Virus record (IMG/VR): IMGVR_UViG_2529292919_000020
Direction: 5' to 3' (one strand)
Source: a virus
Lineage: Duplodnaviria; Heunggongvirae; Uroviricota; Caudoviricetes
DNA: 15,934 nt
The translations under genes were made by a program, and so were the position numbers. Under the pieces are notes generated by a model. The model was not told the origin of the DNA, did no database searches, and saw nothing but the letters and a program-made list of their open reading frames with translations. This document shows positions 5,854 through 15,934 of this stretch, piece after piece (within the stretch, counting starts at the first letter, position 1; every line of letters starts with the position of its first letter).

Positions 5854-6054
5854 TTGACAGAACACTGGCTGAGGGTGGCGATAAAAATCATCGACCGCAA
5901 CGCGGGAGAAGGGTACGCAAAAGCACATCCCGAACTGATAAGCGCATTCATGACCACGGCGGCGGCAAACTTTGCCACGCTGACAGAACGGGAGATTGCC
6001 GAAGCGGAACAGGTGACAACCATCAACGTTAAAACCGGAGAGCAGACAGCATGA
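5854..6054 (+). CDS. Hypothetical small protein (start uncertain: TTG at 5854 or GTG at 5875)
   Basis: ORF-track ORF. Its stop overlaps the SSB start (ATGA at 6051..6054), suggesting coupling. No convincing RBS and no recognisable motif. Confidence 0.35.
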   Translation: MTEHWLRVAIKIIDRNAGEGYAKAHPELISAFMTTAAANFATLTEREIAEAEQVTTINVKTGEQTA

Positions 6055-6476
6055 CAGCACAGATAGCGGCTTACGGGCGGCTGGTGGCTGACCCGCAGTT
6101 AAAGACCACCAGCAAAGGGACACAAATGGCGATGGCGAGTATGGCGGTTCCCCTGCCGTGCAGCCAGGCAGATGACGGAACGGCGACGATGTGGTTATCT
6201 GTCCTGGCGTTTGGCAGACAGGCCGACGCACTGGCAAAACACCACAAAGGCGAACTGGTGAGCGTGGCGGGTAACATGCAGGTGGGCCAGTGGACAGGCC
6301 AGAACGGGGAAACGCAGCGGGGCTGGCAGGTTATTGCAGACAGCGTAATCAGTGCGCGAACGGCGCGACCGGGCGGCAAAAAAGGTCAACAGGGCCAGGC
6401 CACTGACGCACTGAACAGGGCAAAACAACAGACAAGCCAGCACGATGACCCGTACGGGGATAACATACCGTTTTAA
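6051..6476 (+). CDS. ssb: Single-stranded DNA-binding protein (SSB)
   Basis: 141 aa. The N-terminal OB-fold region aligns by eye with E. coli SSB (WLSVLAFGRQADALAKHHKGELVSVAGNMQVGQWTGQNGETQ versus [42 protein letters not shown]). Gln/Gly-rich linker and C-terminal tip ...DDPYGDNIPF resembling the SSB ...DDDIPF tail. GGAGAG SD upstream. Confidence 0.85.
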   Translation: MTAQIAAYGRLVADPQLKTTSKGTQMAMASMAVPLPCSQADDGTATMWLSVLAFGRQADALAKHHKGELVSVAGNMQVGQWTGQNGETQRGWQVIADSVISARTARPGGKKGQQGQATDALNRAKQQTSQHDDPYGDNIPF

Positions 6477-6512
6477 TTCACAACAGCGAACAGAGTAATT
6501 ACAGGGGAAGGC

Positions 6513-7043
6513 ATGACAACGCTGACCATTAACCGGAAGCCGAAAGGCATTTACGGCACGCCGCAGAAAACGACGCAGGCGGCGCAAGAGCAGGATAAAA
6601 CCACATCGGCGCATAAAGTGATACCCGGCAATCAGAACGCACAGCAGAAGCCCACAGGGGCGACACCGTGGCAGCATATGACCAAAAGGCAGCGCAAAAA
6701 CCGCCGACGCGTTAACCGCCTCACTGAGATGTGGCCTGACTTATTCAGCCATAAAGCACCGAAGCCGCTTAAGGTGGGGATATTCGACGACCTGATGCAG
6801 GATATCGCCGTCAGGGGGCTGGCATTCGGGCCGGGGGTATTACGTGCGACGCTGGCATCCTATGCGCAGTCTCCGCGCTATTACCGCGCCCTGATAGCTG
6901 GTGGCGCACGTTACGACCTGAAAGGCCAGCCATGTGGGGAAGTGACACCACAGGAACAGCAGGAGGCAGAAACACGGCTGATGGTGCTGAATGAGAAGCA
7001 CAAGCGCCAGCGCCGGGCAGCAAAGGGGGATACATGCCAGTGA
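6513..7043 (+). CDS. ProQ/FinO-domain RNA-binding protein
   Basis: 176 aa with strong SD (GGGGAAGG). ...WPDLFSHKAPKPLKVGIFDDLMQDIA...LRATLASYAQSPRYYRALIAGGARYDLKGQPCGEVTPQEQQEA matches the ProQ N-terminal / FinO fold signature (PLKIGIF-DL ... LR-AL--Y--S-RY ... R-DL-G-PCGE). Confidence 0.8.
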   Translation: MTTLTINRKPKGIYGTPQKTTQAAQEQDKTTSAHKVIPGNQNAQQKPTGATPWQHMTKRQRKNRRRVNRLTEMWPDLFSHKAPKPLKVGIFDDLMQDIAVRGLAFGPGVLRATLASYAQSPRYYRALIAGGARYDLKGQPCGEVTPQEQQEAETRLMVLNEKHKRQRRAAKGDTCQ

Positions 7044-10527: not shown

Positions 10528-10822
10528 AGCCAGAATTACACCTGATGAAGTCAGGGCACATCTTCGACTTGATGATGATTTATCCGGTGAAGGCGAACTT
10601 CTGAAAATGTATACCGATGCGGCGCTGGAAGCCTGCCAGAAGCATATCGGGAAACGTTTTGAAGACGGGCTGGAATTTACCCCGGCAATGCGTGTTGGTT
10701 GCCTGATGTACATCGCTTTCCTGTACGAGAACAGGGAAGCAGTTTCACCAGTGGAGCAGTCTGAACTGCCTATGGCTATTTCTGCGCTCTGGTCGGTTTA
10801 TCGTGATGTGGGGGTGTACTGA
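10520..10822 (+). CDS. Head-tail connector (gp6-like) protein
   Basis: 100 aa from ATG 10520 with GGGAG SD, overlapping the portal stop. N-terminal ...EVRAHLRLDDDLSGEGELLKMYTDAALEACQ... resembles the gp6-like head-tail connector family signature. Confidence 0.7.
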   Translation: MSEARITPDEVRAHLRLDDDLSGEGELLKMYTDAALEACQKHIGKRFEDGLEFTPAMRVGCLMYIAFLYENREAVSPVEQSELPMAISALWSVYRDVGVY

Positions 10823-11262
10823 TGCCGTGGCAACCATTAAGGCGATGCACTGAGCCGGGCTGTAATAAGCGCGTGAAGTCCGGCAAGTGTGAAGAGCACA
10901 GGCGGGCTGTATGGCGTGCAGAGGATGCCAGACGGGGACACCGCCGCGCGCGCGGGTATTCCCGACAGTGGGACAAATACCGCGCCCTGTACCTGAGCAA
11001 AAACCCGTTATGCGTGCATTGTCTGGTTAAGGGGATTTATACGCCAGCTCTTGTGGTGGATCACATCATTCCCATCAATGGCGGCGGTGATGTTCTCTTC
11101 TGGCCTGAGTGGAACCACCAGGCATTGTGCCAGACGTGCCACAACCGTAAGACGACACGGGAAGATCCCGCCACGAAAGCGAACCGTAAGGCGGGCATGT
11201 ATCGCGAGCAGGAAGAACGGGCGGCACACCGTAACGACTGGATGTATGGCGATGATGACTGA
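10822..11262 (+). CDS. HNH endonuclease (terminase-associated)
   Basis: 146 aa. The start overlaps the connector stop (TGATG). Cys-rich N-terminus (C..C......C..H) and HNH core VVDHIIPINGGGD...NHQALCQTCHNRKT. Confidence 0.85.
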   Translation: MPWQPLRRCTEPGCNKRVKSGKCEEHRRAVWRAEDARRGHRRARGYSRQWDKYRALYLSKNPLCVHCLVKGIYTPALVVDHIIPINGGGDVLFWPEWNHQALCQTCHNRKTTREDPATKANRKAGMYREQEERAAHRNDWMYGDDD

Positions 11263-11550
11263 ACAGGAGCAAAACAGGCTGATACGTGGGTTGATAAGGC
11301 AGCGTGACACATGGAAGACACAGGAGACAGGGCACAAAGCCAACAGGACAGGGCGCACAAAACGCACCACAGCGAAGTGATTAACCGACCGTGACCGCGA
11401 GGTCATGGAATGTTTTCGCAATCGCTGGTGAGGCCGTCAGAGGGGGTGGGGGTGGTTTTCAGGACGAAACCGCCCCTGCCGGACACCGACCGCCTCCTCA
11501 AATTTTTGTGCACGGGAATTTTTTTGAAAATAATTGGGCGAAAAAAGAAC

Positions 11551-11907
11551 ATGGCAAGACCACCAAAAGCCCCCGCTTACCTGGATGAAATCGCGGTCAG
11601 GCAGTGGAAGGAAAAATCGCGCCAGCTTTCCGGACGGGAAGACCTTACCCCCGCCGACTGGAGCAATCTGGAGCTGTATTGTGTTAACTACTCCATATAC
11701 CGCAAAGCCGTCGAAGACCTTGCCACGCGCGGGTTCAGCATTGTTAACAGTCAGGGCAGCGAGAGCAGAAACCCCGCCCTGAGCGCAAAGGCTGACGCTG
11801 AAAGAATAATGATCAAAATGGCTTCTTTGCTGGGTTTTGACCCGGTAAGTCGCCGCAGAAATCCACCGGAAACAGAGGAAGAGGACGAGCTTGACCGCCT
11901 GGCATGA
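11551..11907 (+). CDS. terS: Terminase small subunit (P27-like family)
   Basis: 118 aa from ATG 11551 (MARPPKAPAYLDEIAVRQWKE...LELYCVNYSIYRKAVEDL...NPALSAKADAERIMIKMASLLGFDPVSRRR), a pattern typical of P27-family small terminases. The track start at 11410 adds a low-complexity leader lying in the putative packaging-site region. Confidence 0.75.
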   Translation: MARPPKAPAYLDEIAVRQWKEKSRQLSGREDLTPADWSNLELYCVNYSIYRKAVEDLATRGFSIVNSQGSESRNPALSAKADAERIMIKMASLLGFDPVSRRRNPPETEEEDELDRLA

Positions 11908-13552
11908 GTACGCAGAAGGCGTAAAAAACGGCAAAATTACGGCCTGTAAACGACTGAAACAGGCCGTTAAACGGTATTTTTCTGACCTTGAAAACCCCCT
12001 TTACACGTTCGATCCGGAGGTCGTGGAGCGGTTTATTGCCTTTTCCAGGGTGTGTCCGCACGTAAAAGGCGCAATGCGCGGTAGCCCCATTGAGCTGGAG
12101 CCGTGGCAGCAGTTCGCCTTTGCGTGCATCCTGGGCTTTAAGGTTAAGGCCACCGGACGGCGCAAATACACCAGCGCATTCATTGAAGTGCCGCGAAAAA
12201 ATGCCAAATCCACGGTCGCCGCTATCCTGGCTAACTGGTTTCTGGTTATGGAAAACGGGCAGCAGGATATTTACACCGCCGTCGTGAGTCGTGATCAGGC
12301 GCGGATCGTGTTTGATGATGCGCGTCAGATGTGCCTTTTATCCCGACCGTTACGAAAGCGGGTAAATATTCAGGCACACAAGGTGATACACCCGAAAACC
12401 AACAGCCTGTTAAAGCCACTGGCAGCAAAAGCGGCAACCATTGAAGGTACAAACCCGAGTCTTGCCATTGTGGATGAATATCACCTGCACCCTGACAACG
12501 GGGTTTATTCCGCGCTTGAACTGGGAATGGGGGCGCGTCCGGAGGGGCTGTTATTTGCCATCACCACATCGGGGAGCAACGTTGTTTCAGCCTGTAAACA
12601 ACACTACGACTATTGCTGCCAGATACTGGATGGTGAAGAGGTGAACGAATCCATGTTCGTGCTGATTTACGAGCTGGATGATGAAAGCGAGGTTGACGAT
12701 CCGGCGATGTGGATAAAGGCGAATCCCAATATCGATGTTTCCGTCGATCGTGAAAAACTGGCCTCAACCATCCAGAAAGCGCGGGGTATTCCGTCGCAGT
12801 GGGTGGAAATGCTCACCAAGCGATTCAATATCTGGTGTCAGGGGGCCACGCCGTGGATGGGTAACGGTGCATGGGCGGAGTGCGCCGGAACGTTCGCGGA
12901 GGCGGATTTATACGGTCAGGAGTGCTACGCGGGGCTGGACTTATCATCAACCAGCGATATTTCCAGCGTGTGCTATGCCTTTCCGGTCGGTAAAAAGATT
13001 ATGCTGGTTTCCCGTCACTATCTGCCGGAATTTCAGCTACAGAACCCCGCCAATAAAAACCGCGCCATCTATCGCCAGTGGGTAAAGGCGGGCTGGATAC
13101 GCACAACACCGGGTGACTGCATTGATTATGACCGTATCCGTGATGACATCATGGCGGATGCAGAGAATTTCAATATCAGGCTGGTGGGCTTCGATACATG
13201 GAACGCCACGCACCTGAGGACGCAGCTACAGGGGGCAGGATTTGAGGTGGAGCCGTTCCCGCAAACATACCTTCGTTTCAGTCCGGCGGCGAAATCGTTC
13301 GAAGTTTTTGTTAACCGGAAGGTGATTGTGCATCGTGGTGATCCGGTGCTGGCCTGGTCAATGAGTAATGTTGTGATGCAGAGTGACGCGAACGCCAATA
13401 TCAAGCCGAACAAGAAAAAATCATCCAACAAGATAGACCCGAGCGTTGCGGCGCTGATGGCGTTTGGCACATTCCAGGCAGAGCATGAAGATTTTGCCTT
13501 TGATATAAGCGACAGCCACAAAGAGCGGCTTGCGGCGTTTGATGGTGTATAA
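11891..13552 (+). CDS. terL: Terminase large subunit (ATPase/nuclease)
   Basis: 553 aa. The start is probably TTG at 11891, overlapping the terS 3' end by 17 nt; the next in-frame ATG is about 60 codons downstream and would remove the conserved N-terminus (WHEYAEGVKNGKITACKRLKQAVKRY). Walker A-like VPRKNAKST. Length and position typical of terL. Confidence 0.9.
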   Translation: MTAWHEYAEGVKNGKITACKRLKQAVKRYFSDLENPLYTFDPEVVERFIAFSRVCPHVKGAMRGSPIELEPWQQFAFACILGFKVKATGRRKYTSAFIEVPRKNAKSTVAAILANWFLVMENGQQDIYTAVVSRDQARIVFDDARQMCLLSRPLRKRVNIQAHKVIHPKTNSLLKPLAAKAATIEGTNPSLAIVDEYHLHPDNGVYSALELGMGARPEGLLFAITTSGSNVVSACKQHYDYCCQILDGEEVNESMFVLIYELDDESEVDDPAMWIKANPNIDVSVDREKLASTIQKARGIPSQWVEMLTKRFNIWCQGATPWMGNGAWAECAGTFAEADLYGQECYAGLDLSSTSDISSVCYAFPVGKKIMLVSRHYLPEFQLQNPANKNRAIYRQWVKAGWIRTTPGDCIDYDRIRDDIMADAENFNIRLVGFDTWNATHLRTQLQGAGFEVEPFPQTYLRFSPAAKSFEVFVNRKVIVHRGDPVLAWSMSNVVMQSDANANIKPNKKKSSNKIDPSVAALMAFGTFQAEHEDFAFDISDSHKERLAAFDGV

Positions 13553-13557
13553 CGAGA

Positions 13558-13842
13558 GTGAGCGAAACCGAACTACTAAAAATAATCCGCCGCATTACCG
13601 GAATCAGCCAGGAAGCAGGCAAACAGGAGGCCACGCAGCCGGACAGCGTGATAGCCGAAAATTACGCGCGTGTGGTGGCTGAGGTGATGCGCCGTGATGG
13701 TATTGAGCTTAACGGCGTGGATATGCGCTACATACGGATCAGAGTTCTGGAGTTGTTGTCATATCGTCGCCGCGTGGAGATGTACCAGGAGAAAGAAAAA
13801 ATTACTTACCACTGGAAGAAGCCGGAGCGGTTGCGGCGGTAA
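13558..13842 (+). CDS. Hypothetical protein (94 aa) downstream of terL; last ORF of the element
   Basis: ORF-track ORF with GTG start and weak RBS. Charged, helical-looking sequence with no recognisable motif. Its stop codon lies inside the first copy of a 23-nt direct repeat. Confidence 0.4.
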   Translation: MSETELLKIIRRITGISQEAGKQEATQPDSVIAENYARVVAEVMRRDGIELNGVDMRYIRIRVLELLSYRRRVEMYQEKEKITYHWKKPERLRR

Positions 13843-14003
13843 CTGGTTGATATTCCCGACGGTCCAAAAATGGGTTGGCTACACCCCTCACAACTACGAC
13901 ATTTTCGCAGTTTAATTAATGGTCAGCTTAATCGCTAACCCGCTGATATTTTCGGAAACCTCAATTTGAGGAAGTCGGCGCGGTAACTGTTTGATATTCC
14001 CGA
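13837..14003. repeat. 23-nt direct repeat CGGTAACTG(G/T)TTGATATTCCCGA (13837..13859 and 13981..14003, 1 mismatch), part of a diverged ~140-bp tandem duplication
   Basis: Direct reading. A second shared block CTAACCCG(C/T)TGAT occurs at about 13936 and 14069. Confidence 0.5.
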
Positions 14004-14334
14004 TAACGCAAAATTGCGCTGGATGAATGAACATTATGTTACTTATGATTACGCAGATGATTAAGGCCTAACCCGTTGATTCTTCCACAATCCCCCATTG
14101 GGGGAGGCTGGGCGGCCTGCTGTGGGCTTTTCCACCATTGGTGGAAAGGTGCAGATCTGAATCATCATTACGGTGATCAAGGGTATGTAAAACCCACCAG
14201 CCTGATTGACATTTAACCGGAAAAAAAGCCAGGTAGCCCCGTTATGGGGATCCCCATATCGACATTAACGCCCCTCATGAATTGGCGTGCTTTCCCCTGG
14301 AAAGATGACCCGCCTGTATATTTCTTGTGTCTAT

Positions 14335-14391
14335 TTGTTCCACGTTGTTTCATACAGTGCACCGAACGGTGTAGTTAATGGTGTAGTTAAT
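14335..14391. repeat. Third copy of the phased TTGTTC motif (14335..14351, 2 units 10 bp apart) followed by a perfect tandem GGTGTAGTTAAT x2 (14368..14391)
   Basis: 14335..14352 (TTGTTCCACGTTGTTTCA) is an 18-nt exact match to the reverse complement of 1295..1312. The 12-bp tandem duplication was read directly. Confidence 0.45.
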
Positions 14392-14473
14392 TTGCGATTT
14401 TTGGTACTTTTTGTAGTGCAAATTATTTAATTAAATCAATGCCTTATCTTAATTTAGTGATAAAAGGACATAT

Positions 14474-15934
14474 TTATTCATCTTTCGGCGCAGAATGCTG
14501 GCGACCAAAAATCACCTCCATCCGCGCACCGCCCAGCATGCTCTCTCCGGCGACGATTTTACCCTCATATTGCTCGGTGATTTCGCGGGCTACGGCCAGC
14601 CCCACACCTTGCCCAGGGCGTAAAGTATCAACCCGTTGACCACGGTCGAAAATGACCTCTCGCTTGCTTAATGGAATACCGGGGCCATCATCCTCGACCA
14701 CAATATAGAGATGCTCGTCGGTTTGCCTTGCAGAAATTTCGACAAACTCGAGGCAATATTTACAGGCGTTATCCAGCACGTTGCCCATCACTTCGACAAA
14801 ATCATTCTGCTCACCAACAAAGCTGATTTCTGGCGAGATATCGAGATAGATATTGACCCCTTTGCGTTGATACACTTTGTTCAGCGCCGAGGTGAGATTG
14901 TCCAACAGTGGGGCGACCGGATGCAGCTCGCGGCTAAGCAATGTCCCGCCGCGCATACTGGCACGATGCAGGTAGTAGCCAATTTGCTGTGAAATGCGGC
15001 TGATTTGCTCCAGCATTACCGGCTCAGCATCACTGACGCTCATCTTCTCACTACGCAGAGAACGCAGCGTACTTTGCAGCACCGCCAGTGGTGTTTTCAG
15101 ACTATGGGTCAGGTCGGTGAGCGTCGTACGATATTTGTCGTAACGTTCGCGTTCACTTTTTAACAGTCGGTTCAGGTTTCGTACCAGACTGGTCAGTTCT
15201 CGCGTTGTGGCTGGATTGAGCAATTCACGGTTATGTTCTTCCAGTTCGCGGACTTCTTTTGCCAGGGCTTCGATGGGGCGTAAACTCCACCAGGCGGCGA
15301 CCCACAGCAGCGGGATCACTAACAGCAGATTGGCTGAGAGCACATAGATAAACCAGCTCCAGACCATATAGGAACTTTTTAGCTCCACCGGAATGGTATC
15401 CACCACCACAATGGTTAACTTTGGCATCCGCGATGTTGCCGGGTAGACGTTTACCGCCACCGAGTGGGTCATCTCCGCGTCGTCATCATCTTCCCGCACT
15501 TCCTGCAACTGTTGCTGTATCGAATGATCTCCACTCAGCAAGAGGCTGGTATCGTTAACATCCGCTTCAATTTCATGAAAACCATTCGATTTCAGCCAGT
15601 CAGGCTGGATCATCTTCATCAGCCAGGGCACGTCACGTTGCGCCCATAAAAGCTGCCCGTTCTCATCATAAATTAGTGTCATCGTGGGGCTTTGCTTGTC
15701 GATATTTTCGGGTAACTCGACATGCAACTTATTGTTTTCCCACTTCGCAAGGGTATAGAACAGATTGCTCTCGCCACGTAACAGCCGAAACGTGGTTTTA
15801 TCGAAACTGACGCTATAACCGATCAGCGCAACCATTCCGTAGGCAAGCGAAAGCACCAATACTACTGCTGCCGTTGCTAACAGAAAACGTACCCGCAGCG
15901 AGAGCGGGAAAAAAAGATGCAGTAATTTTTTCAT
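14474..15934 (-). CDS. phoQ: Sensor histidine kinase PhoQ (PhoP/PhoQ two-component system)
   Basis: 486-aa ORF. From memory the sequence is near-identical to E. coli PhoQ ([76 protein letters not shown]... ending ...[10 protein letters not shown]). Periplasmic acidic patch EDDDDAE, HAMP, phosphoacceptor His in [12 protein letters not shown], and ATPase G-boxes. The start codon is at the window edge. Confidence 0.95.

Follow-up and report, generated by a model that had tools for sequence, protein, structure and literature searches.

The stretch of DNA analysed here, called the window below, is 15,934 nucleotides long and is a capsid-forming PICI (cf-PICI) of E. coli. Its Pfam and PGAP annotation comprises an integrase, a regulator and primase/replication functions together with the island's own capsid, protease, portal, connector, HNH, TerS and TerL proteins, and tail genes are absent from this annotation. 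The genes follow the order published for proteobacterial cf-PICIs, satellites that form small capsids themselves and whose own HNH, TerS and TerL proteins package satellite DNA only (bioRxiv 10.1101/2022.09.08.507074). The features that bear on packaging, numbered from the first nucleotide of the window, are listed here.

1-1230: tyrosine integrase (annotation).
Upstream of the packaging genes: D5-type primase/helicase, SSB, ProQ-family protein, HK97-fold major capsid protein, prohead protease, portal and head-tail connector.
10822-11262, + strand: hnh (Pfam HNH, E = 8.5e-9; phrog_144, E = 3e-44; annotated as HNH in the nearest genome).
11246-11431, + strand: small ORF of family phrog_3173 (E = 6e-27), which overlaps the hnh stop and is interrupted by a TGA.
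11320-11363, + strand: ACAGG-type direct repeats inside the small ORF, a lineage-specific insertion/duplication.
11551-11907, + strand: terS, P27 family, 118 aa (Pfam Terminase_4, E = 4e-23; phrog_83, E = 3e-38).
11891-13552, + strand: terL, with HK97-type ATPase and nuclease domains (Pfam TerL_ATPase and TerL_nuclease).

The island is followed by phoQ and thus lies by phoQ-phoP (window 13553-15934). The SSB and the ProQ/FinO-family RNA-binding protein are the island's own, encoded at 6051-7043 upstream of the capsid operon. An island in strain E700025 carries a packaging module that is almost the same, but there the insertion site is yifB and a DUF927 protein replaces the D5-type primase. This combination of another insertion site with another replication module indicates that cf-PICI modules are mosaic and that more than one att site is used. 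Among 5426 E. coli genomes searched with the 401 bases around the site of interest, 161 gave a match, and 151 of these are 95-99% identical to the window; the matches are always chromosomal.

The interval between hnh and terS

A preliminary description of this DNA treated the whole interval between hnh and terS as a 288-bp non-coding gap. This view has to be abandoned, since positions 11246-11431 are homologous to a small gene and the true non-coding DNA extends only from about 11432 to 11550. Homologues of the small ORF are 50-61 aa long, end in a conserved C-terminus of the form ...RDRExxECFRNR, and are present in most enterobacterial cf-PICIs, although they are missing from Pasteurellaceae islands. 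In the window, the reading frame is broken by an in-frame TGA at 11378-11380. At this codon, the 45 scorable nearest relatives carry CGA (31), CAA (10) or TGA (4), and the NCBI annotation (PGAP) calls the ORF a pseudogene in the nearest genome. The copy in the window is either truncated or a pseudogene. The product of this family is basic, and its gene lies between hnh and the proposed cos site (see below) in most enterobacterial cf-PICIs, a location that suggests a packaging-related role.

The same description drew attention to recurring ACAGG-type sequences. The copies at 11263 and 11274 are where it placed them, and its two long repeats are real, although they reside at 11320-11339 and 11343-11363 rather than at 11308-11327 and 11331-11351, a shift of 12 nt. 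A repeat search recovers them as two direct repeats of 19 nt that are 79% identical and spaced by 23 nt. They encode a basic middle segment, KTQETGHKANRTGRTKRT, of the small ORF.

Many gene callers begin terS at an ATG at 11410, which yields a 165-aa TerS protein. We considered whether the conserved blocks described below might represent an N-terminal extension of TerS, and rejected this idea. Measured against the terS ATG, the blocks are in phase 1 in 19 lineages, in phase 0 in 12 and in phase 2 in 9, and about half of the lineages carry an in-frame stop codon no more than 9 nt upstream of the ATG. Because the phase differs and upstream stops occur, the 165-aa call is an artefact and the true start is at 11551 (118 aa). 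This is the equivalent of the start chosen by PGAP, and the N-terminus MARPPK that follows from it is kept across genera.

A conserved bipartite element at 11443-11534

To examine conservation across the interval, hnh-terS regions were gathered from 80 IMG/VR loci and from 48 loci in species-representative genomes, which together cover Klebsiella, Citrobacter, Enterobacter, Serratia, Erwinia, Pantoea, Rahnella, Aeromonas and many Pasteurellaceae. Column identity was then computed on 43 non-redundant sequences to which the collection had been reduced. What stands out as conserved is a non-coding element in two parts, some 90 bp long in all (11443-11534), which is present from Enterobacterales to Pasteurellaceae and rises above the flanking coding DNA. 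Its parts, including two that are predicted from the comparisons made below, are as follows.

11443-11469, + strand: block 1, the G tract followed by TTTTCAGGAC(G/A)AA; putative subsite upstream of the cut, placed like cosQ.
11470-11484, + strand: spacer of variable sequence and fixed length (column identity 0.57-0.67, no indels).
11485-11534, + strand: block 2, conserved; a C-rich presumptive cut region and an invariant TCAAATTTTT, then GCACGG-GA-T7-GAAAATAA.
11487-11496, + strand: predicted cohesive end CGACCGCCTC, consensus C-A/G-CCCGCCCC (from SfI homology, the G-tract ruler and the assembly gaps).
11511-11525, + strand: predicted TerS-binding core (cosB-like) CACGGGAATTTTTTT, at +15 to +29 from the predicted cut (from positional agreement with HK97).

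Not a single gap occurs across 11445-11534 in the 43 relatives. Column identity is 0.83-0.88 in block 1 (11445-11464) and 0.89-0.95 in block 2, and the values for the flanking coding DNA, 0.70-0.88 in terS and 0.49-0.76 in hnh, are lower than those of block 2. Within block 1, GGTGGGGG is nearly invariant among 30 sequences from many genera of Enterobacterales, Aeromonas and Pasteurellaceae, and its distance to TCAAATTTTT in block 2 is 53 nt in 103 of the 111 loci. The gap-free alignment of 30 diverse sequences gives the consensus GGGGTGGGGGnnGTTTTCAnGACAAA, about 17 unspecified nucleotides, and then GGnACCnCCCGCCCCCTCAAATTTTTACGCACGGTGATTTTTTTGAAAATAA. Both blocks are unique in the window, and no match to block 2 was recovered in 200 shuffles.

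The G tract GGGGGTGGGGGTGG, which likewise occurs only once in the window, had already been singled out by the preliminary description; it is indeed present and belongs to the conserved element, although it occupies 11442-11455 and was thus recorded 1 nt out of place. What had been overlooked is the other half of the signal at 11485-11534, with its C-rich block, TCAAATTTTT and GA-T7-GAAAATAA.

Comparison with mapped cos sites and particle-derived genomes

The position of this element, between a terminal hnh gene and the terS-terL pair, is that of the site in HK97, SfV, Murphy, Bialota and AS1, and the TerL, TerS and HNH proteins of the window belong to families of phages with HNH-dependent (HK97/SfV-type) terminases. 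The most direct sequence comparison is with phage SfI, whose cohesive end, TGCCCGCCCC, is 10 nt long and has been established by run-off sequencing (PMC3636060). The core of TGCCCGCCCC is the cf-PICI consensus CCCGCCCC (consensus columns 55-62), which corresponds to window positions 11489-11496. The window itself reads ACCGCCTC in this core and matches CCCGCCCC at 6 of 8 positions, differing at the other 2. Phage SfV shares the order hnh, cos, terS, terL, with hnh as its last gene and a TerS protein 36% identical to that of the window. It carries TGCCCGCCCC followed by ATCG-T7, and the distance from the end of its G tract, GGGGAGGGGCGGG, to that of the cohesive sequence is 41 nt. The arrangement downstream differs in that the T7 run of SfV begins 4 nt past the cohesive end, whereas the cf-PICIs have TCAAATTTTT and then GCACGG-GA-T7-GAAAATAA. 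Moreover, SfI and SfV are phages, whereas the element in the window belongs to a 15-kb satellite.

We noted that the SfV record (NC_003444) starts 7 nt before TGCCCGCCCC and 17 nt before its end, which indicates that the first base of this record is probably not a physical end and that record ends must be used with caution as termini. The start of the SfV record would suggest a cut near 11479, but the mapped end of SfI favors about 11496.

HK97 offers the best characterized parallel. Its hnh gene is last and its terS gene first, its record ends are its cohesive ends, and the overhang is a 10-nt 3' extension, the last 10 nt being the C-rich CGCCGCCAAA. The cut lies 42 nt past the end of a G9 tract, the TerS site has been mapped at +15 to +29 (CTAACCCGATTTTTT) with an A/T tract that is needed, and the HNH protein gp74 stimulates cleavage. 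The T run of the HK97 GA-T7 motif lies at +24, compared to +23 predicted in the window, and the TerL protein of the window carries the same pair of Pfam domains as HK97 gp2. A direct alignment of the element to HK97 cos is only modestly significant, with 7 of 1000 shuffles reaching the score. The bases of the TerS site are nevertheless different (GCACGGGAA in the window versus CTAACCCGA in HK97), and the window TerS has no detectable sequence similarity to HK97 gp1 or to PDB chains, although a fold search that began from a model of moderate quality (pLDDT 71) returned HK97 TerS as the best structural match to the predicted protein. These differences in TerS-site bases and TerS sequence fit the published, mutually exclusive packaging of helpers and satellites.

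The mycobacteriophage Murphy (cluster E), in which hnh is again the last gene, has HNH, TerS and TerL proteins that are all homologous to those of the window: the HNH protein of the window is 32% identical to the terminal HNH of Murphy (E = 4e-8), the TerS proteins, both of phrog_83, are 20% identical (E = 2e-6), and TerL aligns with residues 1-272 of Murphy TerL at 29% identity (E = 2e-24). A stretch of 22 nt, CAGAGGGGGTGGGGGTGGTT (window 11436-11457), is identical in Murphy and ends 38 nt before the right end of its genome, and the T7 run is found at +23, as predicted for the window. The same 22-nt identity is found at the right ends of 152 cluster E mycobacteriophages, where its distance to the genome end equals the one predicted for the window, although on its own it has an E value of 0.3. 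Outside this stretch, the Murphy cos region shows no sequence relationship to that of the window, its terS gene is about 1 kb in from the left end, and the 9-nt sequence CGCTTGTCA, the presumed cohesive end according to PhagesDB, is not C-rich. In Bialota and AS1, G tracts end 42 and 38 nt before the genome ends, which brings the range over HK97, Murphy, SfV/SfI, Bialota and AS1 to 38-42 nt.

Two independent assemblies derived from particles break around this element. The GenBank entry 'Escherichia phage vB_KppS-Ant' (LR881103; 16,548 bp, linear) is in fact the cf-PICI KpCIDSM30104 of K. pneumoniae DSM 30104 / ATCC 13883. It was assembled from lysate DNA of K. pneumoniae DSM 30104 with a Nextera XT library, and its own paper describes it as a filamentous ssDNA prophage (PMC8006926). 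Relative to the chromosomal island its order is permuted: it begins 22 nt before terS, passes through int and the capsid genes, and closes with hnh and the small ORF. When compared with the island in the ATCC 13883 chromosome, 1000 nt on each side are identical and exactly 69 bp are missing at the junction, corresponding to window positions 11466-11535 with the centre of the gap at 11500. Tagmentation libraries lose the extreme ends of linear molecules, and a gap that holds the true termini is therefore expected.

The second case, 'Klebsiella phage P12620-1' (PQ569648, 106.5 kb), is a chimeric record in which an unrelated 90.6-kb phage sequence has been joined to a complete cf-PICI. The last 15.86 kb (90646-106503) belong to another cf-PICI, whose aligned blocks are about 85-89% identical to vB_KppS-Ant. 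Its order is permuted in the same manner, beginning at the second codon of terS and finishing at the final codons of the small ORF, and its gap of about 135 nt (window ~11424-11553) is centred about nine nt upstream of 11500. Both gaps contain the C-rich part of block 2 (~11485-11500), the two records being linear and derived from related islands. The breaks could instead reflect poor coverage of G/C and T homopolymers rather than physical ends. For KpCIDSM30104, particle DNA has been reported to have cohesive ends through which concatemers form (bioRxiv 10.1101/2025.02.11.637232).

A scan of IMG/VR gave more than 120 loci with the motif, essentially all internal to contigs, and no cluster of contig ends at the site, a result that is uninformative about termini. 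The BiPBO1 record starts at the terS ATG, which marks it as re-oriented and unusable as a terminus, and the IPK record is uninformative.

Three rulers that follow from these comparisons agree. The end of the G tract at 11455 plus 38-42 nt gives 11493-11497; homology to the SfI cohesive end places the 10 nt at 11487-11496; and, when +1 is set at 11497, the T7 run starts at +23 (HK97 +24, Murphy +23). By analogy, we infer that the top strand is cut between about 11496 and 11497, to within about 5 nt; the polarity and length of the overhang and the protein bound by each block are likewise predictions. A cut at this position would split the gap in vB_KppS-Ant into 31 and 39 missing nucleotides.

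The proposed cos site and its significance

The element is conserved and fixed in its spacing, its consensus core matches the SfI cohesive end, its geometry recurs in HK97, Murphy and SfV, and the assemblies from particles are linear and permuted. Taken together, these observations lead us to conclude that the gap between hnh and terS very probably holds the island's own packaging cut site, as the preliminary description had proposed. In its specific form, the hypothesis is that the interval is a cf-PICI cos site, namely the bipartite ~90-bp element at 11443-11534, which is read by the island's own HNH, TerS and TerL proteins; we assign to this interpretation a probability of about 0.8.

In this model, once the island has been excised and replicated, a TerS ring would bind the GA-T7 block (11511-11525), about 15-29 bp past the cut. 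TerL together with HNH would then nick the C-rich block in a staggered manner to generate a cohesive end of about 10 nt (~11487-11496), and packaging would run rightwards, such that terS and terL would be the first genes to enter the capsid. At the next cos site in the concatemer, the motor would meet TerS and the G-tract block, and this encounter would trigger the terminal cut. Located some 40 bp ahead of the cut, the G-tract block would represent an upstream subsite in a position like that of cosQ. Furthermore, TCAAATTTTT(G/A) fits the IHF consensus core and could serve as a site of bending.

This layout resembles the cosQ-cosN-cosB arrangement of lambda, with an upstream element, a nick site and a downstream TerS-binding region with or without an IHF-type site, by analogy rather than by homology; lambda has a 12-nt 5' overhang, lacks an HNH protein, and uses the unrelated TerS gpNu1 and three R sites. 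In P4, cos-SaPIs and EcCICFT073-type PICIs (Rpp), a cos site borne by the satellite likewise sets what is packaged. Those satellites copy or redirect the cos site and terminase of the helper, whereas the cos site proposed here matches the island's own TerS, TerL and HNH proteins.

Other functions for the sequences in this interval deserve consideration. On the view of the preliminary description, the ACAGG repeats (11263-11363) would be repeated TerS-binding elements of the cos site; such elements would be similar to the R sites of lambda cosB. The underlying enrichment is real, since six copies of ACAGG are present within these 101 nt, the densest such stretch of the window, compared to 0.12 expected from base composition; the 19-nt direct repeat adds to this, and a CAGGAC motif is present in block 1 as well. 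Yet four of the six copies derive from one local imperfect tandem duplication, all lie upstream of the predicted cut whereas the mapped TerS site of HK97 is downstream of the HK97 cut, and the repeats fall within an ORF of a recognized family. The repeat area (11315-11364) is also the least conserved of the region, with a column identity of 0.07-0.41 and a gap at 11325-11334 in 92% of the 43 diverse relatives, and the repeats are missing from cf-PICIs that carry blocks 1 and 2 and whose TerS proteins are 84-86% identical to that of the window. A role in TerS binding is thus very unlikely, and we conclude that the repeats are a lineage-specific duplication within the small gene and no part of the cos signal. 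Headful (pac) packaging, with the region acting only as a pac recognition site without defined ends, is conceivable in that related small-terminase folds are found in pac as well as cos systems, but we consider it extremely improbable. An HNH gene adjoining terS is the signature of HK97-type cos systems, the two particle-derived assemblies share the location of their ends instead of being circularly permuted, and the cohesive ends reported for KpCIDSM30104 (bioRxiv 10.1101/2025.02.11.637232) are at odds with a headful mechanism.

The blocks might also constitute a promoter, an operator or a leader that controls terS-terL, in which case the cos site would reside elsewhere in the island. The element immediately precedes terS, with a high A/T content close to the start codon, and by our own reading TCAAATTTTTG fits the IHF consensus core TCAAnnnnTTR. 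IHF sites occur in promoters and cos sites alike. Searches for the expected signals returned no sigma-70-like promoter on the + strand, no credible intrinsic terminator and no Rfam match to the element at E <= 1, and its predicted folding is unremarkable (z-score -1.6). A candidate hairpin, GGGGTGGTTT-N8-AAACCGCCCC (11449-11476), was rejected: 60% of its cells are paired, as in shuffled and slid controls, covariation is absent, and the stem is missing in Pasteurellaceae. With neither a covarying structure nor a match to an RNA family, the element does not resemble a structured RNA or regulatory leader. Furthermore, the hnh, terS and terL genes of cf-PICIs are part of one packaging operon (bioRxiv 10.1101/2022.09.08.507074), and a control region would leave unexplained the permuted assembly breaks, the identity to the SfI cohesive end and the end geometry common to five phages. 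For these reasons, we regard a purely regulatory function as very unlikely and favor the cos interpretation.

A cos site of this kind, that is, an HNH-dependent site of the HK97/SfV type within a known satellite class, is what a specialist would expect. One observation alone exceeds expectation: distant HNH-terminase systems have in common a G tract some 40 bp ahead of the cut. Perhaps a G-rich tract about 40 bp upstream of the top-strand nick is a general cos subsite of HNH-dependent terminases, although we offer this generalization tentatively and believe it has distinctly less than an even chance of being correct. Our search of papers yielded no description of such a subsite. If the rule holds, the G tract would be a docking or measuring site for HNH, for TerL or for a stalled motor at termination, and its position would have been kept from cf-PICIs, HK97, SfV/SfI and AS1 to the actinobacteriophages Murphy and Bialota. 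Moreover, the cut would be set by the distance from the G tract to the TerS site rather than by the sequence that is cut, and the cf-PICI spacer, with its fixed length and variable sequence, would be one sign of such a ruler.

Some existing annotations need to be corrected in light of these findings. The 165-aa TerS calls read through the proposed cos site, and of two GenBank 'phages', one proves to be a cf-PICI and the other a chimera of a phage and a cf-PICI.

Current interest in cf-PICIs stems from their having their own capsids, packaging only themselves and moving across species on borrowed tails. The cf-PICI papers state that packaging is of the cos type without mapping the site (bioRxiv 10.1101/2022.09.08.507074, 10.1101/2025.02.11.637232), and among the papers that could be read we found none that maps it. 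Having such an element defined to about 90 bp would provide a handle on packaging specificity relative to HK97-like helpers, a marker with which to find cf-PICIs and orient their genomes, and a minimal cassette that may make plasmids packageable into cf-PICI capsids.
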